From Bacteroidota bacterium (GTDB lineage Bacteria > Bacteroidota > Bacteroidia > Flavobacteriales_C > GCA-002722245), in contig JAPLEZ010000153.1 in assembly GCA_026390935.1 (NCBI GenBank), forward strand, positions 4,052 through 68,051: 64,000 bases of DNA, in the 5' to 3' direction. Within the stretch, counting starts at the first letter, position 1; each line of letters begins with the position of its first letter. Position numbers and translations under genes: made by a program. The notes below the pieces were generated by a model. It ran no database searches. It saw nothing but the letters and a program-made list of their open reading frames with translations, and was not told the origin of the DNA. This document shows, in pieces, positions 22,227 through 40,985 of the stretch.

Positions 22227-22280
22227 CCGACTCTTCGCAAGCGCTTTATTTCCCAACAAATTAATTGTATTTTTAGGGCC

Positions 22281-25058: not shown

Positions 25059-26947
25059 TGTGCGGCATTTACGGATATATCGGACTGAGTGACGACAGCG
25101 TTTTAAAAAAGATGAGCGCTGCCATGCGCCATCGCGGACCTGATGCGCAAGGATTTTGGGGAGAAGATCAGGTTTTTCTCGGACAAAATCGCTTGTCGAT
25201 TATTGATTTAAGTTCCTCTGCTACACAACCGCTCTTCAATGAAGATGGATCGGTGGTGCTGGTGTTCAACGGAGAGATATACAATTACAAAGAATTGCGT
25301 GAAGAATTGTTGCAGAAAGGACATGTTTTCAAAAGCGAATCCGATTCGGAAGTGCTCGTGCATCTGTACGAAGAAGAGGGAATCACCATGCTTTCCAGCA
25401 TTCGCGGAATGTTTGCTTTTGTGATTTACGATAGAAAGAAAAAGCAAACTTTTATAGCGCGCGATCATTTTGGCATTAAGCCTTTGTATATTTTTCAAAA
25501 GGCGGGACACTTCGCTTTTGCCTCTGAAATGAAGGCTTTGCAGCAACATCCCGAAGTAAAATTTGAAGTGAATCCAAAAGCAGTGTTGGATCATTTGTCT
25601 TTTTTATGGTGTCCTTTTCCAAAAACAATGGCCAGCGATGTAACAAAGCTGGAGCCTGGAACGGCGCTAATTTTAGAAGGCAGCGAAATAAAAAAGAAAT
25701 GGAATTTTTATGATATTCCTTACACGGGAAGACACATGGATATTTCGGAAAAGGATGCGGTGGCGGAATTGGATCGCTTGCTGGAAGCCAGCATCAGCGA
25801 GCAGTTGGTGAGTGATGTTCCACTGGGATTGTTTTTATCGGGAGGATTGGATTCTTCATTGATTGCCGCTTATGTGCGCAAACTGAAACCACAACAAAAA
25901 ATAAAAGCATTCACCATTGATATACAGGGGGCCGACATGGAAGGCAATCCCAATGATTTGCCTTATGCGCGCAAAGTGGCGAAAGATTTAAATATCGATT
26001 TAGAAGAAATTATTGTAACGCCTGCCGAGGTGTTGAAACACCTGGAAGAACTCACGTATATTTTGGATGAACCGCTTGCCGATCCTGCAGCAGTAAATGT
26101 TTTGCTGATCACTAAAATTGCCCGCGAAAAAGGATATATCGTTTTGTTATCGGGAGCAGGTGGAGATGATGTGTTTTCTGGTTACCGCCGCCATCAGGCG
26201 ATGCTACTCGATTTGAAGCTATTTAAATTACCGGCCTTCTCCAGAAAGCTGATGGAATTTGCAGGAAAAAAATTACCGGTTATCAATCCTAAAATCCGAA
26301 AAGCAAAAAAATATTTGCAAAATTTTGGTGCATCATTGAATGACAGATTGGTGTCGTATTATTGCTGGTTGGATGAAAGGAAAGCGCATTCGTTGTTGAC
26401 AAATTCTTTCAATGAGAAATTGAAAGATTACTCATCAATAAAAAATTTGGAGCTTGCTTTTCAAAATATTCCAAATGAAAAATCGGCACTGAATAAAATG
26501 CTCTATCTCGAAAGTAAATATTTTTTAGTGGATCACAACCTCAATTATTCCGATAAAATGAGTATGTGTAATTCTGTGGAAACCCGCGTTCCTTTTATGG
26601 ATTACCGCATTGTGGATTTTGCTGCGCAGTTGCCTGTTGAATTGAAGTTGCAAAACGGACAAGCGAAATACATCCTGAAAAAAGTAGCAGAAAAATATTT
26701 GGATAAAGATATCATCTACCGTAAAAAAACCGGATTTGGTGCTCCTTTGCGGGATTGGATCTTAAATGATTTCCAACCTCTTTTTGATAAATATCTCAAT
26801 AAAGAAATCATGCAAAGGCACGGTGTATTCAAACACGATGCAGTGTGGAAAATGATTAAAGACAATGCTTCCGGAAAAAGCGATTCGGCCTATAGTATCT
26901 TCTCCGTGATTTGTATTTCTATCTGGATGGAAAGATTTCAGAAATGA
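25058..26947 (+). CDS. Asparagine synthase (glutamine-hydrolysing)-family amidotransferase, second paralogue
   Basis: MCGIYGY, RGPDAQG, FLSGGLDSSLIAAY; 3' end overlaps next gene by 37 nt. Confidence 0.8.
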   Translation: MCGIYGYIGLSDDSVLKKMSAAMRHRGPDAQGFWGEDQVFLGQNRLSIIDLSSSATQPLFNEDGSVVLVFNGEIYNYKELREELLQKGHVFKSESDSEVLVHLYEEEGITMLSSIRGMFAFVIYDRKKKQTFIARDHFGIKPLYIFQKAGHFAFASEMKALQQHPEVKFEVNPKAVLDHLSFLWCPFPKTMASDVTKLEPGTALILEGSEIKKKWNFYDIPYTGRHMDISEKDAVAELDRLLEASISEQLVSDVPLGLFLSGGLDSSLIAAYVRKLKPQQKIKAFTIDIQGADMEGNPNDLPYARKVAKDLNIDLEEIIVTPAEVLKHLEELTYILDEPLADPAAVNVLLITKIAREKGYIVLLSGAGGDDVFSGYRRHQAMLLDLKLFKLPAFSRKLMEFAGKKLPVINPKIRKAKKYLQNFGASLNDRLVSYYCWLDERKAHSLLTNSFNEKLKDYSSIKNLELAFQNIPNEKSALNKMLYLESKYFLVDHNLNYSDKMSMCNSVETRVPFMDYRIVDFAAQLPVELKLQNGQAKYILKKVAEKYLDKDIIYRKKTGFGAPLRDWILNDFQPLFDKYLNKEIMQRHGVFKHDAVWKMIKDNASGKSDSAYSIFSVICISIWMERFQK

Positions 26948-27396
26948 TTTTTTTTAAAAAAATAAGCACGCATATTTTCCAATCGGATTTCGAGTTTAAA
27001 AAATTGTTGATCAAAGCCTTTTTTTATTCCATGACGGTGCGTTTCATGATGCTGTTTGTGAAATACAATCGTTATGAAAAGCGTTTGGGGAAAAGAGGCG
27101 AAACAGATACTTACACCTTAAGCGAAAAAGAGTTTGCCATTGCACACAACATCGCAAAAGCTTTGAACGGTGTGAGCAATTATACTTTGTGGGAAAGCAA
27201 ATGTATGGTGCAGGCCGTATCGGCAAAATGGATGCTGCAAAAATATTCTATCCCAAGCACCATTTATTTTGGAATAGCAAAAGATGAAGACAATAAAAGT
27301 AAATTAAAAGCGCACGCGTGGTTGAAAGTGGGCGACTGTGTGGTTACTGGTCGTGCCGGTCATGAGCAATATAAAGTGGTTAATTTTTATTCCTGA
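26911..27396 (+). CDS. Lasso peptide biosynthesis B2 protein (transglutaminase-like Cys protease, leader peptidase)
   Basis: 161 aa; WESKCMVQAV (catalytic Cys), KAHAWLKVGDCVV (His/Asp) - pattern of lasso B2/McjB C-domain. Confidence 0.65.
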   Translation: MYFYLDGKISEMIFFKKISTHIFQSDFEFKKLLIKAFFYSMTVRFMMLFVKYNRYEKRLGKRGETDTYTLSEKEFAIAHNIAKALNGVSNYTLWESKCMVQAVSAKWMLQKYSIPSTIYFGIAKDEDNKSKLKAHAWLKVGDCVVTGRAGHEQYKVVNFYS

Positions 27397-27728
27397 CTTT
27401 ATTCCTCACAAAAACATAGGGCCAGAAGAGAGATCTTCAGCGGGAATCAATTAATCTATTGGTTTACCCATTTAAATTACAAAAACTAAATTTGACAGAA
27501 ATATTTTTGTATAGATCCTGCAAAAAGTTCAGGATGACGTTGGCTAGGTATCTCCTGAAGATTATGGTTCACCTTGGTCATCCTGAACTTGTTTCAGGAT
27601 CTATAAAAGAACCCGCCAGGCACTTCATGCATAGTGGATGACGACGTGGTGAAGCGAAGAATCGGGTATGAAAAATGGAATGTTTAATTTTTATTCCTGA
27701 CTTTATTCCTCACAAAAACATAGGGCCA
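27381..27728. repeat. 44-bp direct repeat (27381-27424 and 27685-27728) flanking a ~260-bp insert that carries an imperfect 25-bp inverted repeat (27514-27538 / 27577-27601)
   Basis: Copies identical by eye; copy 1 encodes the C-terminus of B2 (+), copy 2 encodes the C-terminus of the nucleotidyltransferase (-). Confidence 0.6.
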
Positions 27729-28811
27729 AAACAAAGGATATAAAAACGATAAAGTTGCTGGCAAGGAAACATATTTGTACATAAAAAACGGATAGTTGTA
27801 CAAATAAAATAAGCGTGCTCTGAAAGATCCGCTATGTTCCACTTCCACTGCCAGTCGTTTTAATTTGTATGAAACACTTTCACGATTGATAGGAGGATCA
27901 ATGCTTCCAGGAATATATAAAATGAGTGATCTTGCTTTTTCCTTGCTTTTAAATGTGATTTTATTTTTTATTTCCGATGAATAATTTTTTGTTTTTAAAA
28001 GATCTTCAAGTAATGCAAAAGTAATGGACAATTGTTTATCAAATCCATGTTTTTCAGAAAGACGGATCAGATTATTTATTTCTACTTCGGAGGATTTTTT
28101 AACTAAGATATCTAGATCCACCAACCACATCAATCTTTCCCATGCGTGCTGAAATCCGTGCAATAAAAGATATGCTAAATATTGGGCGTTGCCCATGGTA
28201 GAAAATTCAGTGTTGCCAATTTTAATCGTTTGCTTTTCTTTCCAAATATCTTGGAAAGAGAGCGGTAAAATATAGTTGTTTCTGAAGAGTCGCCAATGAA
28301 TTTCAAGGTTTACTTTTTTTTCAGGATGATGGTATAAAAACTGGTCGAAGTTTTTAATCAATACTTCTTTTTGATTTTCTTTTATTTCAAATTCCGGACT
28401 CGTTCTTTTCCATCCAGCAGCAAGCAATATGTTGTTGATGCGAAAGAGCTCGTTGGGCGCAATTAACAAGTCGATATCCAAAGAAGGGCGACAAAGTTTA
28501 TTGCCATGTAAAATCTGGTTGAGCGCCAAGCCCTTTAACAGCAGAAACGAAAGCTGATTTTGTTGAAATAGCGCATTCAGCTCTAAGAGTGTTTTTTGTT
28601 GTCGGAAAGCCTTGCGAGAATCTGCAGTTATTTTTTGTTGCAAGCTATCTGTAAATTGATCAGCCAAGAATAGTTGCAGTTTGTGCTTCACTATGGTAGC
28701 GTGTTCAATAGAGTATGAGGTAGCATGATGGGTGTTGCCCAAACGAAATGCCAAGAGCTCAGTGAGATTCACAAAGTCTTCACAATAAGTTGATTTTAAC
28801 GCGGCGCTCAT
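27684..28811 (-). CDS. Uncharacterised nucleotidyltransferase-family protein (PF14907-like) of the type found in kinase-containing lasso peptide clusters
   Basis: SLDIDLLIAPNELFRINNILLAAGWKR ... HWRLF pattern; genomic context next to HPr-kinase-like gene. Confidence 0.5.
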   Translation of the reverse strand: MSAALKSTYCEDFVNLTELLAFRLGNTHHATSYSIEHATIVKHKLQLFLADQFTDSLQQKITADSRKAFRQQKTLLELNALFQQNQLSFLLLKGLALNQILHGNKLCRPSLDIDLLIAPNELFRINNILLAAGWKRTSPEFEIKENQKEVLIKNFDQFLYHHPEKKVNLEIHWRLFRNNYILPLSFQDIWKEKQTIKIGNTEFSTMGNAQYLAYLLLHGFQHAWERLMWLVDLDILVKKSSEVEINNLIRLSEKHGFDKQLSITFALLEDLLKTKNYSSEIKNKITFKSKEKARSLILYIPGSIDPPINRESVSYKLKRLAVEVEHSGSFRARLFYLYNYPFFMYKYVSLPATLSFLYPLFWPYVFVRNKVRNKN

Positions 28812-28897: not shown

Positions 28898-29791
28898 ATG
28901 GAAAAAAGATATATAGCGGGCGGAATAGTGATTGAAACCGACATTCACTTTCCTGAATTTGTGGAAAGCACTGAACAGCCAGATGTTCAGGTGGTTTACG
29001 GAAAAGTTCCCGAAGAAATTGAAAATCCAAAATCACAGCGGGTTTTGGTGCAGTCGAATGAAAATGAAGTTTTATTGAAAATGCCCGGTGTTGCCAGATA
29101 TTTGGTAGAAGGGGATTCAAAAATTACCATTGAACTGACTGATGAAAATCGTAAAAATGATGCCGAAAAATACGTCCTCACTTTTATCTTAGGTGTATTG
29201 TCCTTCAAAAAAGGATTTTTCCCTTTGCATGGTGGTGGCGTGGTTCACAAGGGCGAAGCCTACTTGTTCACGGGGCATTCAGGTGCGGGAAAATCAACTA
29301 CTTTGGCCGGATTGGCACAAAGAGGTTTTCAGCCTTTGGCCGATGATATCTCCAATTTTTTTGTTCATGACGGAAAAGTATTTGTTCATCCTTGTTTTCC
29401 CCGATTTAAATTGTGGAAGGACAGCATGCAAATGCTCAACAATGAAGGAAGTGGTGAATACAAATTGGGAACCGACATTGAAAAATATTTAGTTCCTGTT
29501 GGTGATGATTTTCCTACAGGACCAATTCCTGTGAAACGAATTTATTTGTTGCAGGAAGATCGTGACGACAAAACATTTTTTAAAGAAATAAAGGGGAAAG
29601 AGAAGTTGATGAAGCTGAAGCAAAACTCTTATAAACCTTGGATGGTAAAGGCATTTAATCTCAATCAGAAACATTTTTCATTGATGAATGATATCGCCGC
29701 TCAAGTGGAATTGAAGGAGTTTCATCGTCCTTTCGATAAAAAGAAAATTAACGAGATGTATGAATTTTTGATCAAAGATATTCAGGGATAA
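28898..29791 (+). CDS. HPr kinase/phosphorylase C-terminal-domain-like Ser/Thr kinase (lasso peptide kinase candidate)
   Basis: LFTGHSGAGKSTTLAGLAQRGFQPLADD (HprK P-loop + LADD); ATG at 28898 chosen over track start 28790, which overlaps the divergent gene. Confidence 0.7.
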   Translation: MEKRYIAGGIVIETDIHFPEFVESTEQPDVQVVYGKVPEEIENPKSQRVLVQSNENEVLLKMPGVARYLVEGDSKITIELTDENRKNDAEKYVLTFILGVLSFKKGFFPLHGGGVVHKGEAYLFTGHSGAGKSTTLAGLAQRGFQPLADDISNFFVHDGKVFVHPCFPRFKLWKDSMQMLNNEGSGEYKLGTDIEKYLVPVGDDFPTGPIPVKRIYLLQEDRDDKTFFKEIKGKEKLMKLKQNSYKPWMVKAFNLNQKHFSLMNDIAAQVELKEFHRPFDKKKINEMYEFLIKDIQG

Positions 29792-30658
29792 GTGCAAGGA
29801 AAAAACAACATAATTTGGCTTACGTCTTATCCTAAATCGGGCAATACCTGGATGCGCATGTTTTTGCATGCGTTGAAAACCGGTTGTGATCATGTGGAAA
29901 ATTTTGAACAGATTGAAGGTTCTGATGGCATTGCTTCTTCACGCTCTTTGTTGGATGAGTTATTGGGAATATATACTTCCGACATGGTGGATATTGAAAT
30001 TCAGAAATTAAGAGCAGATGCTTATCGCTTGTATTCATCTGAATTGACAGAAGAAATTATTGTGAAAGTTCATGATGCTGCTTTTCATGGCGGCATATTG
30101 ACTTTCCCTAAAGAGGTCACAAAAAAAGTAATTTACATAGTTAGAAATCCTTTTGATATGGTGGCTTCTTATGCTAATCATATGGGAAGCAGCATTGAAA
30201 AATCAGTGCAGTCTTTATGCGATGGAAATGGATTTTTGGCTGGAAATAAAAAGAAACTAAACAACCAAGTTACCCAATACATGGGCTCGTGGAGCGATCA
30301 CTACAACTCCTGGAAAAATTTGTATCGTGAAAATATTGAGGTGATTCGTTATGAAGATATGCTCAATGATTCCTTCGCTACTTTTAATAAAGTGGTGAAA
30401 TGCATCGGATGGGAGAAAACAAATGAGGAAATTGAAAAGGCAATAAGTGTGAGCGATTTTAAAAATTTGCGGTCGGTGGAAGAGCAGGCTGGATTTAGAG
30501 AGAAACCGAAAGAGACAAAACATTTTTTCCGACAAGGAAAATCCGGACAATGGAAAAATGAAATTACCCCTGAACAAGCGAAAACACTGGTCGACAGGCA
30601 TTTTTATACTTTGTTGGAATTGAATTATATTGATGCAGCGGGAAATATTTTGGTATGA
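29792..30658 (+). CDS. Sulfotransferase-domain protein (PAPS-dependent)
   Basis: IIWLTSYPKSGNTWMRMF (5'-PSB motif), IYIVRNPFDMVAS (3'-PB region). Confidence 0.7.
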   Translation: MQGKNNIIWLTSYPKSGNTWMRMFLHALKTGCDHVENFEQIEGSDGIASSRSLLDELLGIYTSDMVDIEIQKLRADAYRLYSSELTEEIIVKVHDAAFHGGILTFPKEVTKKVIYIVRNPFDMVASYANHMGSSIEKSVQSLCDGNGFLAGNKKKLNNQVTQYMGSWSDHYNSWKNLYRENIEVIRYEDMLNDSFATFNKVVKCIGWEKTNEEIEKAISVSDFKNLRSVEEQAGFREKPKETKHFFRQGKSGQWKNEITPEQAKTLVDRHFYTLLELNYIDAAGNILV

Positions 30659-32490
30659 GTGCTATATTCGGATATACAGGAAACACAGGTAGTGCAGAAG
30701 CTCTGTCAAAATCACTTAGGCATTGGCAACCTGATAGGGAAGCTATTTTGCAAGATGATAAGGTATCGCTTGGAGCATTGGAATTGTTCAATGTTCCTGA
30801 ATCCCCTTTAACTCCGCAACCCTACCAATACAAAGATTTGATAGTGGTTGCTGATTGCAGAATCGACAATAGGGAAGAGCTGGCAAAGGAATTTTCCATT
30901 AAGGATATTTCAGCCCACGCCGATATTGAATACATCGCTTTAGCCTATGAAAAATGGGGAAACGATGCGCCAAAATATTTAGTGGGCGATTTTGCTTTTG
31001 CAATTTGGGATAAAAAAAGTGATCAATTATTTGCTGCTCGAGATCATTTTGGAATTAAAACTTTGTACTATTCTGAAGTAAAAGGCGAACTTGTTTTTGC
31101 TTCCGAAATGAAAGGAATTTTGGCTTATCCTGGATTTAAAATTTCGTACAATGAAGAGTATATCATTAGTGAATTTTCAGCCTTAGAGCTTTCTGCCACC
31201 AGCACGTTTTACGACAATATTCATTTATTGCCTCAGGGATTTTCTTTGATCTGGAAAAATAAAATCGTGAGAAGCTCAGCCTATTGGACTTTTGGTGAAC
31301 GAACAGTAGAAATCCCTATAACTGTTGCCGAACAAGAAGCGGAGTTCAATCGCTTGGCCTATCAAAGCGTTCGAGACCGTTTGCGTTCGTTTAGAAGATT
31401 GGGTGCGGAGTCCAGCGGAGGATTGGATTCAACAGGTATTGCAGCCATTGCCATGGAAACTTTGGGCAAGGGAAAAGAGTTTTATTCTTTTGGTTATGGA
31501 AGGGCAGCCAATCCTACCACCGAGCAGGATGATAAGGATGACATGGACATCGTCCGGGATATGTGCGTAAAATACGGTATTGAAAAATATCTCACTGTTG
31601 TGAGTGAAAATGATTTGAATGGTCAGGAAATGCTTGATTTGATGATTGAGGTTTGCGATGATTACGAAAGCAACGGTGTGCCTTTAATGTCGTTGGCTCT
31701 GTTGAAGCACGCTGTGAAGAATGATGTTGGTGTGATGCTTTCTGGTTGGGCCGGAGATCAGGGAGTAACTTGTACAGCCGAAGGATTTTTTGAAAACTTG
31801 TCGAGGGAAAAAAGATACCGCGAGTTATGGAAAGATTTGCGCAGAAAACATTCGCGCTTAAAGGCACCATCCCGTTTTCTTTTTTACGTGTTGAAGGGTT
31901 GGAATAGAAATTCGTTTTATAAAAAGAACAATAAAGTAGAAAGATTGAATTTGGAGCTGGGTCCTTTAAAAGAGGAACTCATTGCTAAATACAATTTGAA
32001 AGAATTGAGAGGAGTAAACGCTTTCTTAAAGGATTGTTCCGACATTCAAACCTATTTCAAAAGAAATATACAGTATAAAGGTATTGAAAAAAGAACTTGT
32101 GATCATGTATTGATCGGTCAACATTTTCGCATTGAATACCGCTTTCCAATGCTAGATGTAAGATTGTTGGAGTACATTTATAGCTTGCCTTTTAGTACGA
32201 TAGCTCCGCAAGGGAAATCACGATATTTATTTAAAAAGTTGGTTCAACCTCTAGTGCCTCCTCGCCTAATCAGCATGCATAAAAGTTATGTTGCAACAAC
32301 ACCTTTTATCTTTAAGTTTAATGAAGCTTTTCTTCCCTTTGTGCGCGAGCAATTTTATGCTAACAGAAATCCGCTTTTAGATAAATATTTTGCGGTGCAA
32401 AAATTGGAAAAAGAAGGCTCTGAAAAGGAAGCTAAAAAAAGAAATAAAAGCTACCTAAAATTATACTTCTTTGCAAAGAAGATGAAATAG
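30655..32490 (+). CDS. Lasso peptide cyclase (C protein; asparagine-synthetase homologue lacking the Cys2 glutaminase nucleophile)
   Basis: Starts MSAIFGY (Ser in place of Cys), ARDHFGIKTLYY, ESSGGLDSTGIAAIA PP-loop; context with B1/B2/precursors/ABC. Confidence 0.7.
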   Translation: MSAIFGYTGNTGSAEALSKSLRHWQPDREAILQDDKVSLGALELFNVPESPLTPQPYQYKDLIVVADCRIDNREELAKEFSIKDISAHADIEYIALAYEKWGNDAPKYLVGDFAFAIWDKKSDQLFAARDHFGIKTLYYSEVKGELVFASEMKGILAYPGFKISYNEEYIISEFSALELSATSTFYDNIHLLPQGFSLIWKNKIVRSSAYWTFGERTVEIPITVAEQEAEFNRLAYQSVRDRLRSFRRLGAESSGGLDSTGIAAIAMETLGKGKEFYSFGYGRAANPTTEQDDKDDMDIVRDMCVKYGIEKYLTVVSENDLNGQEMLDLMIEVCDDYESNGVPLMSLALLKHAVKNDVGVMLSGWAGDQGVTCTAEGFFENLSREKRYRELWKDLRRKHSRLKAPSRFLFYVLKGWNRNSFYKKNNKVERLNLELGPLKEELIAKYNLKELRGVNAFLKDCSDIQTYFKRNIQYKGIEKRTCDHVLIGQHFRIEYRFPMLDVRLLEYIYSLPFSTIAPQGKSRYLFKKLVQPLVPPRLISMHKSYVATTPFIFKFNEAFLPFVREQFYANRNPLLDKYFAVQKLEKEGSEKEAKKRNKSYLKLYFFAKKMK

Positions 32491-33261
32491 ATGGGTGCAA
32501 TTTCTTATATAAAAGCCCGAACAAGTAATTTCAGAAATGCCATTTGGCATTCTAATAAATTTGGCTATCGCGTCCTCCGTCCACTATATGCCTCTGCGCA
32601 TTTTACTTTTTCCTTTTTATTCAATTCAGCATATCGAAATAAAACCATTGATTACTTAAAATACCGTAAGCATTACCATCAATTCCCAAATTTTACAAAG
32701 GCGAATCGTTATCCCGATTTATTTAGCATTTGTCAGCGATACTTTAAGGACAAAGAGCAGGTGAGAATTCTTTCTTTCGGATGCTCAACGGGTGAAGAGG
32801 TGTATAGTATCAATGAATATCTTCCTGAAGCTACCATTGTAGGAACCGATATTAGTGAATACAACTTGAAAGAGTGCAATAAAAAAGAGAAGAAGAAAAA
32901 CATTTCATTTATTCATAGCTTGTCGGAAACCTACCAACAAAGCAAAAATTTTGACGCGATATTTTGTTTGGCGGTTTTACAACACAACGATAATTTCAAC
33001 AAAGACATACCAACTGCTACTAAATATACCTTCAGTCAGTTTGAAGAGCAGATCATTACTTTAGACGAAAAGTTAAAATCAGGAGGCCTGTTTTTCATTG
33101 ATCAAACTGATTTCAATTTTTTGGAAACGAAACTCCGAAATCAATATTTTCCTTTGGAAGTTCGAGGCAATCGTAAAAGCAATCCCCGACCTTTATACAA
33201 TTCCAAAAATATCAGAATTTCCAATGAGCATAACTGTTTCAGGGTTTTTTTGAAGAAGTAG
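32491..33261 (+). CDS. CheR-type SAM-dependent (carboxyl) methyltransferase
   Basis: VRILSFGCSTGEEVYSI matches CheR motif (WSAGCSTGEEPYS); 256 aa. Confidence 0.55.
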   Translation: MGAISYIKARTSNFRNAIWHSNKFGYRVLRPLYASAHFTFSFLFNSAYRNKTIDYLKYRKHYHQFPNFTKANRYPDLFSICQRYFKDKEQVRILSFGCSTGEEVYSINEYLPEATIVGTDISEYNLKECNKKEKKKNISFIHSLSETYQQSKNFDAIFCLAVLQHNDNFNKDIPTATKYTFSQFEEQIITLDEKLKSGGLFFIDQTDFNFLETKLRNQYFPLEVRGNRKSNPRPLYNSKNIRISNEHNCFRVFLKK

Positions 33262-33311
33262 TGGTGAATTAATTGAATTTCTTTTATTTTTAGAAAAATA
33301 CCACATTGATT

Positions 33312-33437
33312 ATGGAAACAAAAAATGAAATAGAAGTAAAAAAAGTTTGGGTTAAACCTGAATTGAAAGTTGAAGAATTGAATATAACGGCTGTCAAAGG
33401 CACTAATATATTAGAAGGTGGTCCCTACCGCACTTAA
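33312..33437 (+). CDS. Lasso peptide precursor A1: METKNEIEVKKVWVKPELKVEELNITA|VKGTNILEGGPYRT (predicted core after leader Thr-2)
   Basis: Read by hand; not in ORF track (41 aa); shares leader KKVWVKPELKVEE with A2/A3. Confidence 0.65.
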   Translation: METKNEIEVKKVWVKPELKVEELNITAVKGTNILEGGPYRT

Positions 33438-33471
33438 TAGCATGTATAATTGAAATAATAGCATTTGCATT

Positions 33472-33591
33472 ATGAAAACAGAAAAAGAAGTAAAAAAAGT
33501 TTGGGTTAAACCTGAATTAAAAGTTGAAGAAGTAGAAGTTACTAATGGTGGTGGGGCGCGAGTTAGAGAATCAGGGACTTACAGAACGTAA
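33472..33591 (+). CDS. Lasso peptide precursor A2: MKTEKEVKKVWVKPELKVEEVEVTN|GGGARVRESGTYRT
   Basis: Read by hand (39 aa); leader Thr at -2, Gly1, Glu8 for 8-residue macrolactam. Confidence 0.7.
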   Translation: MKTEKEVKKVWVKPELKVEEVEVTNGGGARVRESGTYRT

Positions 33592-33595
33592 TTGT

Positions 33596-33805
33596 TTATA
33601 TCTCTTTGAGATAGTTAAAGAGTTCAAAATCTTTTTTGTAAAAGTCTTTAACCATTTCAAGTAATTCATCATCGTAAAATTCCATGAAATTCAAGTGCTT
33701 AGAGCTATTGATTTCATGGAATTTTGGTTTTGATAGGTTTAAGGTATTGAAGAAGGACTGGAGGATGAGCTTCGAGACCAATTTACTGTGGTGGCATGTG
33801 TTCAT
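33596..33805 (-). pseudogene. Truncated duplicate of the 3' end of the sulfotransferase gene at 34024-34650 (C-terminal ~47 aa near-identical)
   Basis: ...NLSKPKFHEINSSKHLNFMEFYDDELLEMVKDFYKKDFELFNYLKEI vs C-terminus of 34024..34650 product; nucleotide repeat 33592-33750 ~ 34017-34175. Confidence 0.6.
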
Positions 33806-33893
33806 TGCTTGGATAGTTGGCTTGCTGTCGCAGCTACATCGTCAATCATTGTTATTATTATCTAGATTTATTATTTTCGAAAAAAAATCACTC

Positions 33894-34019
33894 ATGGAAA
33901 ACAAGAACGAACAAGAAATTAAAAAAGTTTGGGTTAAACCTGAAGTTAAAGTTGAAGAAGTAGATGTTACTAATGGTGGTGGGCCGGGATTGAGAGAAGG
34001 AGGGACTTACAGATCGTAA
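33894..34019 (+). CDS. Lasso peptide precursor A3: MENKNEQEIKKVWVKPEVKVEEVDVTN|GGGPGLREGGTYRS
   Basis: Internal Met of track ORF 33684..34019; same leader; only last 41 codons judged real. Confidence 0.7.
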   Translation: MENKNEQEIKKVWVKPEVKVEEVDVTNGGGPGLREGGTYRS

Positions 34020-34023
34020 TCGT

Positions 34024-34650
34024 TTATATCTCTTTGAGATAGTTAAATAGTTCAAAATCTTTTTTGTAAAGGTCTTTAACCATTTCAAGTAATTCATCAT
34101 CGTAATATTCCATGAAATTCAAGTGCTTAGAGCTATTGATTTCATGGAATTTTGGTTTTCCTAGGTTTAAAGCACTAAAGATGTGCTGAAGGTCATTGTT
34201 GAAGTTTTCCACCTTTCCTATAAAATCCATTTTGAGTTGGCGGTTTTCATTGACTAAGAATTCAAACTGCGGCAGCAAATGAATTTTTGATTCCAGATTT
34301 TCCTTACTAAGCATTTTTTTAATTTCGTCTCGATGTACTGAAGGACTTATGTTTTCAGTCTTTTTTATGAAGAAGTAATAGGAGATGAGTCTATCGTATG
34401 GATTGCGAACAAAAGCAAATTTATAATATTCGTTGATTAATGGCTTGAAGTAGGGTTCTACTTCCGTATACTTTAAATGACCATGTGGAATATCGGCCAG
34501 TTTTTTAAAAGGAAGTTTGCTCGACTTAAATAATGCAACCTGTTCAAGGTCCTTTTCAGACAGATGTTCCCGCAAAGCAAAGCGCACTGAATGTGTTCCT
34601 GTTTTAGGAATCGCAAAAAACATAAATTTATGTTGGTGGCTGATGATCAC
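34024..34650 (-). CDS. Sulfotransferase-family protein (second sulfotransferase of the cluster)
   Basis: FFAIPKTGTHSVRFAL (PKTGTT-type 5'-PSB motif), VRNPYDRLISYY. Confidence 0.6.
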   Translation of the reverse strand: MIISHQHKFMFFAIPKTGTHSVRFALREHLSEKDLEQVALFKSSKLPFKKLADIPHGHLKYTEVEPYFKPLINEYYKFAFVRNPYDRLISYYFFIKKTENISPSVHRDEIKKMLSKENLESKIHLLPQFEFLVNENRQLKMDFIGKVENFNNDLQHIFSALNLGKPKFHEINSSKHLNFMEYYDDELLEMVKDLYKKDFELFNYLKEI

Positions 34651-35240
34651 AATTCAAAGTCGGGTTTTGGAACATCATTGATTTCGGCATCCAGATATTC
34701 GAATATTAAGTGAATACGAGCTGTATTGCCGTCGTTTCTTACGGCGTGCATGCCTGAATTGTCCATTTCATAGGCTTTGCCTTTTTCAAAATAATAGTCG
34801 ATTCCTCTCACCGAAAAAACAACCTGCGGATTTGTAATTATTGGAATGTGAATTTTATGGGGAGGCCAGAAAATATAGTCAGAATCAATGTGTTCGGGAA
34901 TTATGGTACCCGGAACCATGCGCGCCAACATCACTCTCGGAAAAAATCCTTTTTTATAGCCATAAGGTTCTACGGCTTTTTGCATGATTGGCAGCAAAAC
35001 AGCTTTATACTTGTCCCACAATTCCAAATCGAAATAGACACAGGGACCTTCTAGTTTTTTACTCCAACGAAAATTGACGTGATTGACTTGTGATAGAGAG
35101 TATTTTTTATTTTGATTGACTTTAAAATCTTCCTCCTTATCCCATTCATATATCAATTCGGGAAGTATTTTAATTAAAGGGTTAATGTCAACTTCCCCTA
35201 AAAACCGCACGCTGTTTGTTTTGCAATTGTTTTTTTCCAT
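34647..35240 (-). CDS. Aspartyl/asparaginyl beta-hydroxylase-family (AspH/LpxO-like) Fe(II)/2-oxoglutarate oxygenase
   Basis: PEHIDSD...H...NSGMHAVRNDG...RIHLIF cupin-type metal-binding pattern; 197 aa soluble. Confidence 0.45.
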   Translation of the reverse strand: MEKNNCKTNSVRFLGEVDINPLIKILPELIYEWDKEEDFKVNQNKKYSLSQVNHVNFRWSKKLEGPCVYFDLELWDKYKAVLLPIMQKAVEPYGYKKGFFPRVMLARMVPGTIIPEHIDSDYIFWPPHKIHIPIITNPQVVFSVRGIDYYFEKGKAYEMDNSGMHAVRNDGNTARIHLIFEYLDAEINDVPKPDFEL

Positions 35241-35307: not shown

Positions 35308-35580
35308 ATGGACTTGAATAAAAAAATCTCCCGCAGCGATAATTATGTTTTCAATGAAGTGGATGGAGAGTTGGTAATGATGAACATTGAAACAGGTTCG
35401 TACGCGAGCTTAAATGAAACTGGGAAATCTATTTGGTTGCAGTTGGAAACAGCTAAAACATTGGATAGTGTGATTGAAGGTTTGATTGCCGAATATGAAA
35501 TTGATAGAGCTACTTGTGAGCAAGAAGTTTTTCCTTTCGTGGAAAAAATGGTAAAAGACGAAATACTGATTTTAGCTTAA
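35308..35580 (+). CDS. PqqD-like RiPP recognition element (lasso peptide B1 protein)
   Basis: 90 aa, NEVDGELVMMNIETGSYASLNETGKSIWLQLETAKTLDSVIEGLIAEYEID - PqqD family pattern. Confidence 0.65.
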   Translation: MDLNKKISRSDNYVFNEVDGELVMMNIETGSYASLNETGKSIWLQLETAKTLDSVIEGLIAEYEIDRATCEQEVFPFVEKMVKDEILILA

Positions 35581-35609: not shown

Positions 35610-36812
35610 CTATAACTCTGTAATTTTTATCTCCGATTTTAAATTCTTTAGAGCAAAATTCACTTTGAATTTATTTCCTTTTTGTGGTGAAATAAAATAC
35701 AGTTGAGAGCTCCAATGATTGCTGGGATCCACTTTTTGAGGATGCATAGAAAGAACGTTGTTGCTCGATAATTCTGTTTCAAAGTACAGTAGCATTCCGT
35801 TGAAAATTCCGGAATTTTCCAAAGAAAATATTTTTTCACAATCTTCTACTTTATCTACAGCGTTTGAAAAATCTAGATGAGCCAATTCTATTGGTTCAGA
35901 AAGCACTTTCCAGTTTTTAGTTTCAGTGCTATTGATGTTGATTTTTTGTAAAGTTTGTTTGTCGTTAAATTCAAGGAACGAGGAAAAATCAACACCATAC
36001 CATTCTTTCCAATGGACAATATTTTCTGGTGACAATTGATTTTGATGGTATTTTTTAAAATCTGCTTCAACCGCCATTCCAAATACTGTAATGCTTTTGG
36101 GAATTATAATCGCGATGGGAGTGAGTAATCTCTCTTTAGCATCTTTAAAGGTTTTAATAATGCCTTCCTGGAAGGGATCATTCCCAATGATTTCGCTTAC
36201 CAAAACGGTGGCTTTTTCGGGTAAGGTTATTTTTGTCGAATCGCCGTGGATCAAAGTTATTTTATCTTCCAGTCTGTTGGCTTTAAAAACGGCACTTGCC
36301 ACTTCAATAAATTCGGTCCTTTCAATGGCATACACATGCTTTGCTCCGGCCATGGCTGCAGTAGCGGCTAATATGCCATTGCCAGTTCCAATATCTAATA
36401 CAATGTCGTTTGGGGTTACGGTTTCACGAATGGCTTTTTGAAAAGCTAATGTTCGCGCTTTATCGTTCAACATTCGGATATGAACAGGAAAGGAATCAAA
36501 TTTTCCGCTATGGAAACCAAAGGTGTTTTTGCTTTCGTCTTTTACTTCAAAAAAGCCTTTTTTGAGTAAGTCGTGAAAATCAGCAGTAAATGTTATAAAG
36601 GAACTTTTATCTGTGCAGCTGTCAGCTATTTTTTTGAGTCCGTCTTCAATGCTAGTCCATTGTTGAAAAACCTCCACAAGTTTTAATACTTCATTTGATT
36701 TTTTTATCCTCAACTCCCCATTAGAAATAGTAAAGCCCGAATCGGTAAATTGAAAATTTACTTTTCTATTGAATCTAATGATGTCTTTTTTGTTTATTTT
36801 CATGGAAATCAA
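35610..36812 (-). CDS. Protein-arginine-N-methyltransferase-like class I SAM methyltransferase
   Basis: DIVLDIGTGNGILAATAAMAGAKHVYAIE...LVSEIIGN closely parallels PRMT1 motifs I/post-I/II (VLDVGSGTGIL...AGARKVIGIE...IISEWMGY). Confidence 0.5.
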   Translation of the reverse strand: MISMKINKKDIIRFNRKVNFQFTDSGFTISNGELRIKKSNEVLKLVEVFQQWTSIEDGLKKIADSCTDKSSFITFTADFHDLLKKGFFEVKDESKNTFGFHSGKFDSFPVHIRMLNDKARTLAFQKAIRETVTPNDIVLDIGTGNGILAATAAMAGAKHVYAIERTEFIEVASAVFKANRLEDKITLIHGDSTKITLPEKATVLVSEIIGNDPFQEGIIKTFKDAKERLLTPIAIIIPKSITVFGMAVEADFKKYHQNQLSPENIVHWKEWYGVDFSSFLEFNDKQTLQKININSTETKNWKVLSEPIELAHLDFSNAVDKVEDCEKIFSLENSGIFNGMLLYFETELSSNNVLSMHPQKVDPSNHWSSQLYFISPQKGNKFKVNFALKNLKSEIKITEL

Positions 36813-36862: not shown

Positions 36863-36988
36863 ATGGAAAATAAAATCAAAGAAGGAAAAAAAGTTTGGAT
36901 TAAACCTGAATTGGAAATTGAAGATGTGCTTTTAACCGAAGGCGGTCGAAATACTCCTGCTCCCGAGAACAGCACTCAGCGTACTTAG
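36863..36988 (+). CDS. Lasso peptide precursor A4 (divergent core): MENKIKEGKKVWIKPELEIEDVLLTE|GGRNTPAPENSTQRT
   Basis: Read by hand (41 aa); leader motif KKVWIKPELEIE; C-terminal RT. Confidence 0.6.
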   Translation: MENKIKEGKKVWIKPELEIEDVLLTEGGRNTPAPENSTQRT

Positions 36989-37021: not shown

Positions 37022-37963
37022 ATGTATGGCACTTTTCAAAGACTTCAGCTCAGTGAAATAGATGAGCAGCAAGTAAGTTTGTCGGAACGCTACATTTCCC
37101 CCAACATTCAAATATTTGAAAAGGCTTTTTGTGATTTTAGAAAAGAGGTAGATGAGATTTGGAAAGCGGGATTTTCATCAACAATAAGTGCCCAAAAAAA
37201 TTCCTTTTTAAAAGAGAAAATTGAACAAAGCAAGAAGAAATTATTTTCTTCGGAAATAGCTGCATATCCTGTTGGAATATGCTATCCTCTTTCAGAAATA
37301 GCATTTCAATTCCTTATGGAATTGGAAGTGCACGATCCAAAATCGGTATTTTATTCTTTGCGTGAATTCCTTGAAAAAGGCGGCATCATTAAAGTAATTT
37401 GGGGAGAAGTTCGGCATGAGTTTTTTCAAACTTCTTTGCAAATTGGAGAATGGTGTGTTGATGTTGCCAACGATACCGTGGATGTGAAAAAACCTAAGGT
37501 GGTGTGTTTTAAGCTTACTGCTTCCGATTGCCCTTTTCATGAAGTTTTATCAATAGAGCAATATGTGCAAATAAAGCGATCGTATCATGATTGCACCATT
37601 TATGTGAATACCATATTTCCGCATTTATTTCCTTACTTTCCACTGCTGGTGCTTCAAAATAAAGATGGAAAAATCAGTTTAGACACATCCATTTGTGTGC
37701 TTGATTTGACATTGAGCAAGGGTTATGACTTTGTTTTTTCTTCTTTGTTTCAACCATTGCCAAAAGAAGTTTTTGAGCGCATATCAATAAAGGTGGATCG
37801 TTTGCGCGCTAAGTATCAATATGCTGAATTGCTGGAGTGTAGAAATTGCGCACTTGAAGAATTGGCAAAACTAAGTGTTGCTCAAGTGTTAACCGATAAA
37901 GCCACCATGACCAAAGTTAAAGCCACTGTGAAATACATTAATTTTATGGTGAATGCTTTGTAA
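37022..37963 (+). CDS. Hypothetical protein inside lasso cluster (no recognisable motif)
   Basis: 313-aa ORF, good coding appearance, co-oriented between precursor A4 and ABC exporter. Confidence 0.3.
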   Translation: MYGTFQRLQLSEIDEQQVSLSERYISPNIQIFEKAFCDFRKEVDEIWKAGFSSTISAQKNSFLKEKIEQSKKKLFSSEIAAYPVGICYPLSEIAFQFLMELEVHDPKSVFYSLREFLEKGGIIKVIWGEVRHEFFQTSLQIGEWCVDVANDTVDVKKPKVVCFKLTASDCPFHEVLSIEQYVQIKRSYHDCTIYVNTIFPHLFPYFPLLVLQNKDGKISLDTSICVLDLTLSKGYDFVFSSLFQPLPKEVFERISIKVDRLRAKYQYAELLECRNCALEELAKLSVAQVLTDKATMTKVKATVKYINFMVNAL

Positions 37964-38001: not shown

Positions 38002-39660
38002 ATGCACAATCTTAAATCCATACTTTCATTTTTCAAATTGATGCTTTCGCATTTCAGGTGGAAGATTGTATTGATTGTGTTGTTCGGTATACTTTTTTCC
38101 TTTTTTCAGGGCGTAGGAATTGTAATGATTATTCCACTGCTGGAATCTTTTCAGAACAATGGAAATTCCATGTTTACCAAGGTGTTTGAGTTTTTGGGCT
38201 GGAGTGGTGGATTGAATCAATTGTTGTTGATTTATTTTTTGATTTTACTTTTTTATGCGCTCTTCAAAGCTTTGCAAATTTTATACACGCAACGCACGAT
38301 CGCACGTTTTTCCAATCAATTTGCAGTAGATGCCATGCAGCATTTGCTAACGGCCAATTGGGAATTTTATTTAAAAGTACCTTCTTCACAAATCATTAAT
38401 TTATTGAAAACCGAAAGTCGTTCGGTGAAAACATTGGCGCATTTTCTTTTTCAGGCAATGCAGGGCGCAATATTAATTGCCATTCAATTGTTTTTTGCTT
38501 GCTGGATTTCTGTTAAGCTCACAGCACTTTTGCTGGTGATACTGGTATTTTTATTTCTCATTCAGCGCTTTGTTTTTAAAGCCAATTACAATTTAGGAAA
38601 GGGAAATGTGGGCTTGTCGGAATTTTTACAAAAATATCTCAACGAGACTTTTAAAGGAATAAAACTATTGAAGTTACACCGACTGGAACTGAAAAAAGGT
38701 AAAGAGTACGAGGAACAAATGGAAAGAATTTACCAAAATGAAATTAAGAAGTCGACGATGGATGCTTTGAGCGATTTGCTGTACACCTTGTCGGGAGCGC
38801 TCATCATTATTTTAATGATAGGATTCAGCATTTCTTACAATTTACTTTCTATTACGTCCTTATTGGTTTTACTGGTTTTATTTTCCAGGGTAATTTCACA
38901 GTCTACAGCTCTTGTTCAAACTACAGGTTATATTGTGAATTTAATTCCATCTTTTAATCGCTTTGCTGAAATAGTTGATTTGGCGAAGGAAAGCGCACAG
39001 CAACCTTCAGAGAAGTTGGAAAGAAGAAATATTGCATCATTGGAATTGAAAAACATTCACTTCTCTTTTGGAGAGAAAAAAATATTGAACGATCTCAACA
39101 TCAAATTTGAAAAAGGAAAATTTTATGTGCTCACTGGTGCAAGCGGAGTGGGAAAAACCATTACTTCCGATTTGATTTGCGGATTGATTTCGCCTCAGCA
39201 AGGAGAAATCATCATTGATGGAAATATAGTGAGTATAGAGCTCTTAAAAAGCTATCAGGCGTCTATCGGTTATGTTTTGCAGGATACTGTTTTGTTTGGC
39301 ACTTCCATCCGCAACAACATCACTTTCATGGAAAATTATTCCGATGAACAAATTTTAAATGCTGCACATAAAGCCGGATTGAAAAGTCTTTTGGAAAAAT
39401 TGCCCGAAGGATTAGATGCTATTGTGAAAGAAGACAATCGCGGATTTTCGGGAGGTGAAATGCAACGCATTGCCATTGCCCGTGCGCTCATTCGCAAAAC
39501 TCCTTTGATTATTTTGGATGAGGTAACCAACGCTTTGGATAGAAAAAACGAAGACATTATTTTGGCTACGATCAACGAAATAAAAAAAGACAGCATTGTG
39601 ATTTTAATCACGCATAAAGAGTATTTGTTTGATTTGGCCGACGAAGTAGTACGTTTGTAA
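38002..39660 (+). CDS. ABC transporter, fused permease/ATP-binding protein (lasso peptide exporter D candidate)
   Basis: N-terminal 6-TM region; Walker A GASGVGKT, signature FSGGEMQRIAIARAL, Walker B LIILDEVTNALD. Confidence 0.8.
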   Translation: MHNLKSILSFFKLMLSHFRWKIVLIVLFGILFSFFQGVGIVMIIPLLESFQNNGNSMFTKVFEFLGWSGGLNQLLLIYFLILLFYALFKALQILYTQRTIARFSNQFAVDAMQHLLTANWEFYLKVPSSQIINLLKTESRSVKTLAHFLFQAMQGAILIAIQLFFACWISVKLTALLLVILVFLFLIQRFVFKANYNLGKGNVGLSEFLQKYLNETFKGIKLLKLHRLELKKGKEYEEQMERIYQNEIKKSTMDALSDLLYTLSGALIIILMIGFSISYNLLSITSLLVLLVLFSRVISQSTALVQTTGYIVNLIPSFNRFAEIVDLAKESAQQPSEKLERRNIASLELKNIHFSFGEKKILNDLNIKFEKGKFYVLTGASGVGKTITSDLICGLISPQQGEIIIDGNIVSIELLKSYQASIGYVLQDTVLFGTSIRNNITFMENYSDEQILNAAHKAGLKSLLEKLPEGLDAIVKEDNRGFSGGEMQRIAIARALIRKTPLIILDEVTNALDRKNEDIILATINEIKKDSIVILITHKEYLFDLADEVVRL

Positions 39661-40847: not shown

Positions 40848-40985
40848 GTGTGGTACTCAGCGTCTTCCCTTATGTTCAATATACCACCACCTAGCGTGGA
40901 ATCTAGCTCTAAATCAGTCATTGCAGGAGCAACCCATTGTTTTTTTTCTGGTGTCATAAGAATTAATTTTTTCAAAGATAGTAAT

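Follow-up and report, generated by a model that had tools for sequence, protein, structure and literature searches.

The interval 28898–35240 of the 64,000-nucleotide stretch of DNA analyzed here (the window, in whose coordinates all positions are given) is the tailoring core of a paeninodin-type, that is kinase-type, lasso peptide cluster of an uncultured Bacteroidota bacterium. The lasso cluster covers about 26.9–41.0 kb of the window and includes five short precursors; it is a variant of the known paeninodin-type lasso clusters, of which the kinase and the nucleotidyltransferase (NTase) are the already known part. That the enzymes of this interval form a tailoring module of a lasso cluster had been proposed in an initial annotation made from the sequence alone, and their membership was borne out, while the gene list proved too short, as a PRMT-like methyltransferase, a JmjC_2 oxygenase, and a conserved 313-aa protein lie outside the interval. 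The claimed open reading frames (ORFs) are all present as described, and all family assignments survived hidden Markov model (HMM), profile, or fold tests, including the CheR and sulfotransferase calls that the annotation had itself singled out for an HMM search (CheR 34.3 bits, Sulfotransfer_1 100.6 bits, Sulfotransfer_2 76.2 bits). The genes on which the following argument is built are these (GA, gathering threshold of the Pfam model; PAPS, 3'-phosphoadenosine-5'-phosphosulfate; SAM, S-adenosylmethionine; 2OG, 2-oxoglutarate; RiPP, peptide made by the ribosome and modified after translation):

26911..27396, plus strand: B2 leader peptidase, transglutaminase-like (Pfam Transglut_core3, 73.5 bits; NCBIfam lasso_biosyn_B2, 81.9 bits, cutoff 33)
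27684..28811, minus strand: PsmN-type NTase-fold protein (Pfam NTP_transf_5, PF14907, 148 bits, GA 31)
28898..29791, plus strand: HPrK-like lasso peptide kinase, 297 aa (family profile and invariant motif residues)
29792..30658, plus strand: ST1, a cytosolic-SULT-type PAPS sulfotransferase (Pfam Sulfotransfer_1, PF00685, 100.6 bits, GA 22)
30655..32490, plus strand: lasso macrolactam synthetase (C protein, cyclase; Pfam Asn_synthase and GATase_7)
32491..33261, plus strand: CheR-fold class I SAM methyltransferase (MTase; Pfam CheR and structural match)
34024..34650, minus strand: ST2, Sulfotransfer_2 family (PF03567; Pfam 76.2 bits, GA 22)
34647..35240, minus strand: AspH-family Fe(II)/2OG oxygenase, 197 aa (Pfam Asp_Arg_Hydrox, PF05118, 44.5 bits, GA 22.6)
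35308..35580, plus strand: B1, a PqqD-type RiPP recognition element (RRE), 90 aa (Pfam PqqD, 60.7 bits)
38002..39660, plus strand: ABC exporter (D protein; Pfam ABC_membrane and ABC_tran)

For these genes we propose a five-step pathway, to which we assign, as a whole, a probability of roughly 0.55. The HPrK-like kinase would first phosphorylate the side-chain hydroxyl of the C-terminal Ser or Thr of the linear, leader-bearing precursor, and the PsmN-type NTase would then extend this phosphate with a hexose. In the third step, ST1, co-translated with the kinase, would O-sulfate the tail, most likely at the Tyr phenol two residues before the C-terminal residue, and in the fourth, the CheR-fold MTase, co-translated with the cyclase, would methyl-esterify the C-terminal alpha-carboxylate, the sole carboxylate that ring closure leaves free in the precursors A1–A4. 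The AspH-like oxygenase would, fifth, hydroxylate a tail residue, with Asp10 of precursor A5 as the best candidate, and ST2 would sulfate the new hydroxyl. Finally, B1/B2 and the cyclase would cut the leader and close a ring between Gly1 or Val1 and Glu8 or Glu9, and the ABC pump would export the product. Steps 1 and 2 rest on analogy with characterized homologues, and steps 3–5 are what we infer; that all substrate assignments beyond the kinase and the NTase are of this latter kind weighs against the pathway.

The identity of the cluster is based on the lasso core set, with a split B1/B2 and an Asn-synthetase-like cyclase recognized by Pfam and NCBIfam. B1 reaches 74 bits with the NCBIfam model lasso_PqqD_Bac (cutoff 80), and the best NCBIfam match of the cyclase is the lasso isopeptide bond-forming cyclase, with 267.7 bits under a cutoff of 525. 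The true start of B2 probably lies some 10–30 codons downstream of the ORF start. With the paeninodin/pseudomycoidin-type clusters of Firmicutes and Proteobacteria (PadeK/ThcoK/PsmK, PsmN), the window shares the split B1/B2, the Asn-synthetase-like cyclase, the ABC exporter, an HPrK-like kinase with the His-Lys-Asp-Asp residues, a PF14907 NTase, the KKxWxxPxL leader, and a C-terminal hydroxyl amino acid. It differs from them in its Bacteroidota host, in having five precursors with very short cores of 14–15 residues, four of which end in Thr instead of Ser, and in the translational coupling of ST1 to the kinase; the CheR-fold MTase, the AspH–ST2 pair, the PRMT-like methyltransferase, the JmjC oxygenase, and the 313-aa protein are additions to the paeninodin/pseudomycoidin set.

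The genes of the interval are packed very tightly. The kinase ends with a TAA at 29791 and the GTG of ST1 begins at 29792, ST1 and the cyclase overlap by an ATGA (30655–30658), and the TAG of the cyclase ends at 32490, directly followed by the ATG of the MTase at 32491. The three junctions that had been annotated here (29791/29792, 30658/30655, 32490/32491) are thus exact in the sequence, and a further overlap that had not been listed, a GTGA on the minus strand (34647–34650), joins the AspH-like gene and ST2. Kinase, ST1, cyclase, and MTase are indeed tightly coupled: among the loci of relatives that we compared with the window (numbered with L), this coupling is kept in L161; the kinase–ST1 arrangement recurs at 44 of 85 kinases, and the cyclase–MTase arrangement in L001, L081, and L161.

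The precursors share a leader motif, AAAGTTTGGGTTAAACCTGAA, for which four occurrences were found at the DNA level against 0.01 expected. The initial annotation had counted four precursors, and a regular-expression scan added a fifth on the opposite strand:

33312..33437, plus strand: precursor A1, core VKGTNILEGGPYRT (shared leader KKVWVKPEL)
33472..33591, plus strand: precursor A2, core GGGARVRESGTYRT (leader motif)
33894..34019, plus strand: precursor A3, core GGGPGLREGGTYRS (leader motif)
36863..36988, plus strand: precursor A4, core GGRNTPAPENSTQRT (leader motif; weak match to the NCBIfam paeninodin family, 19.2 bits)
40844..40957, minus strand: precursor A5, core GGGILNIREDAEYHT (regular-expression scan)
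33596..~33760, minus strand: dead duplicate of the ST2 3' end (self-alignment of the window)

The A5 precursor (MTPEKKQWVAPAMTDLELDSTLGGGILNIREDAEYHT) is convergent with the JmjC_2 gene, their 3' ends overlapping by 4 nt, and equivalent precursors convergent to a JmjC gene are present in L001, L004, and L162. Leader position −2 is Thr and core position 8 or 9 is Glu in each of the five precursors, and the first core residue is Gly in four of them and Val in A1. The products are predicted from the genes to be threaded lasso peptides with a Gly1/Val1–Glu8/9 ring. The cores A1–A4 contain exactly one acidic residue each, the ring former. The statement that no core contains Asp did not hold, as A5 has an Asp at position 10; Asn is present in A1 and A4, as had been noted, and also in A5. 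At the C-terminus, Tyr-(Arg/His)-(Thr/Ser) is the last tripeptide of four cores, and the fifth, A4, ends in Gln-Arg-Thr; the last residue is Ser in A3 only and Thr in A1, A2, A4, and A5. Arg occurs in all five cores, in four of them at the penultimate position, which is occupied by either Arg or His throughout. The precursors of related loci end nearly all in Ser, with the limit that the later scans kept only Ser- or Thr-terminal peptides. As a side observation, A1-type cores (window 33312–33437; L161 154–469) open with Val-Lys (VKGTNILE..., VKSPYRRE...) instead of Gly, and the leaders in L161 have Val, not Thr, at position −2, which is unusual for lasso leader recognition.

The alignment of the window with itself showed that 33440–33830 and 33860–34260 are near-identical over about 270 nt. 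Judging from this alignment, a recent tandem duplication (33440–33760 versus 33860–34190) has doubled the A2/A3 precursor and, with it, some 160 nt from the 3' end of ST2, and the dead fragment is near-identical to the live ST2 copy.

The first step is assigned to the kinase. Its match to Pfam Hpr_kinase_C (PF07475) is only 19.8 bits, below the GA of 33.3, and a profile of 19 kinase homologues matches the HPrK/P structures 2qmh/1jb1 with E=3e-8 over about 60 residues. By these profiles, its homology to HPr kinase/phosphorylase is distant and confined to the C-terminal domain. Its homologues carry PF07475/PF27840 and likewise comprise 297 aa, the length obtained in the window from the ATG at 28898. 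The residues H111, K132, D149, and D150 are invariant in the 19 diverse homologues, as is the Walker A motif G129-x-G131-K132-S133, and they correspond to the reported His-Lys-Asp-Asp motif, found by mutagenesis to be essential in the lasso kinases that attach phosphate to the C-terminal Ser of a still linear precursor and that can also stack further phosphates onto the first one (PMC9266682). What speaks against phosphorylation in the window is the C-terminal residue: four of the five cores are Thr-terminal, the precursors of the kinase family are almost always Ser-terminal, and a Ser-to-Thr variant was not phosphorylated by the related kinase LppK (PMC13381572).

For the second step, the combination of HprK-type kinases and NTP transferases is typical of paeninodin-like clusters (PMC13381572), and PsmN, an "uncharacterised NTP transferase" and the sole characterized member of the NTase family, is needed for the attachment of one or two hexoses to the phosphoserine at the C-terminus, a D134A/D136A mutant being inactive (PMC6993621). 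The NTase of the window has a D-x-D motif in its translation (SLDIDLL), which may correspond to the mutated pair of PsmN; a PDB sequence search with the protein gave no match, and homologues are present in many kinase-type lasso loci. The "nucleotidyl" modification in the title of the initial annotation should therefore be read as phospho-glycosylation. The gene had also been placed within the interval and is in fact located just outside of it, at 27684–28811.

The third step concerns ST1, whose coupling to the kinase is widespread. We scanned kinase-anchored loci with one genome per species (80 loci), using an alignment of 11 kinase sequences as query, which replaced the 19-sequence alignment, as that proved too diverse for a locus search. 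An ST1 homologue lies immediately 3' of the kinase and on the same strand at 44 of the 85 kinases that have downstream sequence, with gaps of −48 to +30 nt, and the hosts of this pair include Legionellaceae, Azospirillum, Acidobacteria, Bryobacteraceae, Bacteroidales, and Sericytochromatia. The PKSGNTW, K92xH94, R118xPxD..S126, and FFRxG motifs are kept in 56 ST1 homologues of lasso loci, with at least 94% conservation of K15, H94, R118, P120, D122, and S126; with the PAPS-binding and catalytic motifs thus retained, ST1 and its homologues are catalytically intact PAPS sulfotransferases. Among solved structures, Teg12, Teg14, and StaL come closest (E about 1e-16 for Teg12/Teg14), and the catalytic His of ST1 aligns with the KTH motif of Teg12. 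Teg12, Teg14, and StaL sulfate phenolic hydroxyls of glycopeptide antibiotic aglycones. Teg12/Teg13/Teg14 and StaL resemble ST1 in the PAPS-dependent SULT fold with PKxGxTW, the catalytic His, and RNPxD motifs, and they act on hydroxyls of a peptide natural product, which in their case is a cross-linked non-ribosomal heptapeptide aglycone, whereas the substrate of ST1 is predicted to be ribosomal and probably a linear, leader-bearing peptide; the sequence identity is low.

We favor O-sulfation of Tyr by ST1. A Tyr within the last eight precursor residues was found in 20 of 35 loci with ST1 and in 3 of 15 loci without (Fisher p=0.03), and in the Bacteroidota relatives, the Tyr stands nearly always two residues ahead of the C-terminal residue (Y-x-S/T). 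Two observations detract from this assignment. The association between Tyr and ST1 ignores phylogeny and uses automatically called peptides, and there are many ST1-containing clusters that do not have a Tyr near the C-terminus (..FGPS, ..STLS, ..VGAS). These latter clusters keep a rival explanation alive, in which ST1 acts on the kinase's own residue, either by sulfating the C-terminal Ser/Thr hydroxyl or by capping the phosphate as a phosphosulfate. In many of the ST1-containing clusters (..FGPS, ..IGPS, ..VGAS, ..VLGS), the C-terminal Ser is the sole hydroxyl in the last four to five residues, and the near operon fusion of kinase and ST1 across phyla would fit a common target. Every lasso tailoring enzyme characterized so far modifies the last residue of its precursor while this is still linear (PMC8498205), and the further phosphates that are placed on a first phosphate (PMC9266682) are a precedent for a second anionic group. 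Against this stand the nearest solved relatives, which sulfate phenols, and the enrichment of Tyr near the C-terminus in ST1-containing loci. Also, we know of no peptide phosphosulfate, and the literature that we searched describes no sulfated lasso peptide and notes a sulfotransferase gene merely as "putative"; such a gene, uncharacterized, has been noted in some Firmicutes clusters of the paeninodin type (PMC8498205). Weighing both sides, we consider sulfation of the C-terminal residue a rather unlikely but serious competitor of Tyr sulfation. Sulfation of the sugar installed by the NTase is disfavored: the presence of ST1 and the presence of the NTase are independent (8/14/6/12, odds ratio 1.1), and the NTase-added sugar therefore is not the obligatory acceptor of ST1.

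The fourth step is assigned to the CheR-fold MTase. The Pfam CheR match of 34.3 bits (GA 27) aligns 45 residues only, and the best structural match is CheR, about 2.5 Z units above the first methyltransferase that is not a CheR. The motifs SxGCSTGEE and FDxIFCxxV are common to CheR and are invariant in the family of the window protein as ILSFGCSTGEE and FDAIFCLAV; a further CheR motif, T-x3-R-x4-F, which had been matched by eye, was dropped as the HMMER alignment did not bear it out. The family is well populated in Bacteroidota, and in a metagenome scan anchored on this MTase, which yielded 40 loci of at least 5 kb, 26 of the 40 had a homologue of the kinase, the cyclase, B1, or B2 within 10 kb; in the window, L001, L081, and L161, the MTase gene directly follows the cyclase. 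The protein family scans revealed no che genes within the window, and in contrast to the CheR glutamate O-methyltransferase, the MTase is found outside of a chemotaxis context and coupled to a lasso cyclase. CheR modifies Glu side chains, and the cores A1–A4 have no free Glu left after ring closure.

The fold of the MTase is thus supported, and its carboxyl chemistry is something that we only infer. The likeliest carboxyl target is the C-terminal alpha-carboxylate. Several MTase-containing clusters encode cores without Lys, Arg, His, Tyr, or a spare acidic residue, for example GGGWPGNDGAGTSTLS and NGLGVVIDIPGSTVVGPS, and what all cores of MTase-containing clusters have in common is a C-terminal Ser/Thr that bears a free carboxylate, together with a phosphate where a kinase is present. 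As this residue is the sole common denominator, a C-terminal methyl ester is the most economical reading. It agrees with the initial annotation, which had held C-terminal or side-chain carboxyl methylation to be plausible, and in A1–A4 the single acidic residue would be consumed by the ring. The outcome proposed here, in which the C-terminal carboxylate of a lasso precursor is methyl-esterified, would equal that of StspM in the lassomycin type. A search for PCMT or O-methyltransferase-specific Pfam domains in the MTase gave no match, which leaves the protein with no evident relationship to the putative O-methyltransferases found in clusters of the lassomycin type (PMC8498205); with its CheR-type fold, it would, if the chemistry is the same, probably be an independent recruitment.

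The C-terminal methyl ester has to be weighed against two sequence comparisons that speak against a CheR-like function: the protein stays far under the cutoff of the NCBIfam CheR equivalog, and the sequence profile ranks the protein-lysine N-methyltransferase 5dnk (E 1.6e-7) above the CheR structure 5ftw (E 1.6e-5). Alternatively, the MTase may be no carboxyl O-methyltransferase and could instead methylate the phosphate installed by the kinase, or N-methylate Arg, Lys, or His. With sequence profiles, Rickettsia protein lysine methyltransferase 1 is the best PDB match, BpumL/BamL, which are RiPP N-methyltransferases, are among the matches too, and His, Arg, or Lys is frequent just before the C-terminal Ser in MTase-containing clusters; in most loci, the MTase family co-occurs with kinase genes. 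However, CheR is the top structural match with the margin given above, and the MTase-containing cores without Lys, Arg, and His leave no universal target for N-methylation. Phosphate methylation is, to our knowledge, without precedent in RiPPs; the phosphate methyl ester nevertheless is the main rival to the C-terminal methyl ester. Taken together, we regard these other chemistries as improbable, though worth keeping in mind, and prefer the C-terminal methyl ester.

For the fifth step, the AspH-like oxygenase and ST2 have to be considered as a pair. The iron ligands of the AspH-like protein, H117-x-D119 and H165, and its 2OG-binding R175 are kept in 31 homologues, and a PDB sequence search gave no match for it. 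ST2 contains PKTGTHS and RNPYDRLISYY (VRNPYDRLISYY) motifs in its translation, and its PDB matches are weak (heparan sulfate 2-O-sulfotransferase, E 0.05). The two genes adjoin in all eight lasso clusters examined (the window, L065, and L161–L166), and in L161–L166 and L065, which came from a genome scan, the Sulfotransfer_2 gene directly follows the AspH homologue within a kinase-type lasso cluster that also has the kinase–ST1 arrangement. In reverse order, and with no RiPP genes nearby, a Sulfotransfer_2/Asp_Arg_Hydrox pair is found in Dokdonella, Thermomonas, and Hyphomonadaceae (L167 5132–6329, L169 4369–5636, and L170 4367–5624; AspH identity about 45%), and the Thermomonas pair adjoins AsmA and a 312-aa, LpxO-sized AspH-family paralogue. 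As the pair stays together across phyla and contexts, the simplest reading is that both enzymes catalyze consecutive steps on one substrate, which suggests a hydroxylation followed by sulfation of the new hydroxyl.

The best candidate target of the AspH-like enzyme is Asp10 of A5. An E-D-x-x-Y or D-D-x-x-Y tail is present in five of the eight pair-containing clusters (EDAEYHT in the window, SEDMWYHT in L162, HEDNYHTS and GEDALYSS in L163, GDDAWYVS in L164, and YEDAMYVSH in L065), and the A5-type peptides of L001 (RETAEFKS) and L004 (ERAEMSS) have neither the Asp nor the Tyr, with no AspH–ST2 pair in the loci as fetched. A strict tie between the pair and this tail was rejected, as L165 and L166 do not conform to it, and in L081, the motif is present where the pair is absent. 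The Fe/2OG oxygenase CanE of the canucin cluster hydroxylates the C-terminal Asp of its lasso precursor (PMC8498205). CanE and human AspH are Fe(II)/2OG oxygenases whose target is an Asp in a peptide, and the enzyme of the window belongs to PF05118 and has an HxD...H...R set. It differs from CanE and human AspH in its length of only 197 aa without a TPR domain, in its top structural neighbor, which is a free-proline hydroxylase, in its constant pairing with a Sulfotransfer_2 enzyme, and in its candidate Asp, which is internal to the tail, whereas the CanE target is C-terminal.

Alternatively, the pair does not modify the lasso peptide at all and represents a hydroxylate-and-sulfate unit for an envelope lipid or a small molecule that is merely linked to the cluster or serves immunity. 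The occurrence of the same pair without RiPP genes in the three proteobacterial lineages, with AsmA and an AspH paralogue beside the Thermomonas copy, would agree with such a role, and the precursors of the pair-containing clusters do not have any one residue in common. In Bacteroidota, however, all eight pairs examined lie within kinase-type lasso clusters, usually between the RRE/kinase genes and the cyclase, the recent duplication in the window extends over a precursor and the 3' end of ST2, and the CanE precedent shows that the Asp of a lasso precursor can be hydroxylated (PMC8498205). We therefore think that a substrate unrelated to the lasso peptide is unlikely, and retain the AspH-like/ST2 pair as the candidate fifth step. 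Independently of this question, L168 (3417–9477) contains an AspH homologue and a methyltransferase beside an APS kinase, CysD/CysN-like genes, a PqqD protein, and a 48-aa ORF, and these genes may form a cluster of RiPP-like kind that supplies itself with PAPS.

Three more genes of the cluster were found outside of the annotated interval:

35610..36812, minus strand: PRMT-family methyltransferase, 400 aa (Pfam PRMT_C, 35 bits; PDB matches PRMT7, PRMT1, and CARM1)
37022..37963, plus strand: conserved 313-aa protein (L001, L004, and L081 have homologues in the corresponding place)
39675..40847, plus strand: JmjC_2, ribosomal-oxygenase-type Fe/2OG oxygenase (Pfam JmjC_2, 81.4 bits)

All three genes are syntenic in L001, L004, and L081. 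The PRMT-like protein is a full-length homologue, with PDB matches at E values of 3e-26 to 1e-22 that span the catalytic and the barrel domain. A link of its gene to the penultimate Arg is unsupported, since L004 and L081 have the gene and not that Arg. The closest PDB relatives of the JmjC_2 protein are the histidyl hydroxylases NO66/MINA53 and the arginine hydroxylase YcfD, and for the 313-aa protein, no Pfam or NCBIfam match was obtained; both proteins probably also belong to the tailoring enzymes. Most enzymes of the cluster could converge on the C-terminal tripeptide, and a comparison of the related loci detected no covariation of tailoring genes with this tripeptide. Taken to its limit, this idea makes the Tyr-Arg-Thr end a hotspot with up to five to six modifications, namely sulfo-Tyr formed by ST1, methyl- and/or hydroxy-Arg formed by the PRMT-like and JmjC enzymes, phospho(hexosyl)-Thr formed by the kinase and the NTase, and a C-terminal methyl ester formed by the MTase, and makes the AspH-like/ST2 pair a general bacterial cassette for hydroxylation followed by sulfation. 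As a joint claim, this is speculative, and we would give it a low chance of being right in all its parts. If true, the cassette would make a beta-hydroxy-amino-acid O-sulfate and would also serve non-RiPP substrates in Proteobacteria. We know of no beta-hydroxy-amino-acid O-sulfate in bacterial peptides.

Upstream, the lasso cluster is preceded by genes for a surface polysaccharide (about 8.9–26.9 kb), among them two genuine AsnB paralogues, and downstream, there are housekeeping genes. The Asn-synthase genes at 20415–22226 and 25058–26947 were rejected as extra cyclases, as they belong to the polysaccharide cluster, score 261–300 bits with Asn_synthase, and are 89% identical in L006. A PAD_porph gene at 40986–42005 was weighed as a source of citrulline in the tail and set aside, since its product resembles a housekeeping agmatine deiminase: agmatine deiminase models are its top NCBIfam matches, yet below the cutoff, and the identity in L081 is 83%. 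The part of the polysaccharide cluster that abuts the lasso cluster (20415–26947) encodes the two AsnB-type amidotransferases together with a methyltransferase and glycosyltransferases. Its AsnB and methyltransferase are 89–94% identical in L006, compared with 58–65% for the lasso genes, and L161 has the same gene order. As the neighbors are conserved far beyond the lasso genes in L006 and keep their order in L161, the lasso cluster occupies a conserved chromosomal position. In the related Bacteroidota lasso clusters L162 and L164, there are in addition Trp halogenases, a GT8 glycosyltransferase, a Sulfotransfer_4 protein, MBOAT, and further methyltransferases, with two kinases per cluster, and the tailoring repertoire of this clade is therefore very variable. 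In a Flavobacteriales metagenome-assembled genome, a 55-aa ORF between two kinase loci (L001 2849, plus strand; L006 20258, plus strand), MENNTKNAQLFGDKGAKKDYKKPVLKEHGGLSELVQLRPDRGPDGETRWTDCTSA, looks like a different precursor type.

Lasso peptides are stable scaffolds of pharmaceutical interest, for which a handful of tailoring reactions is known, nearly all of them at the C-terminal residue, and in the literature that we searched, no sulfated, CheR-type methylated, or Arg-methylated lasso peptide is described. The value of the cluster lies in three candidate chemistries, which are the widespread kinase-coupled sulfotransferase, the CheR-fold MTase, and the hydroxylase–sulfotransferase cassette that also exists outside of RiPPs. 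The kinase–sulfotransferase pair occurs in about half of the kinase-type clusters across phyla (44 of 85 kinases); the association has been noted since 2016, and we know of no product that has been found. With its short cores and simple tail, the cluster of the window is a compact test case for this pair. The AspH-like/ST2 chemistry, in turn, could explain an unannotated two-gene unit in proteobacterial genomes of at least three lineages.

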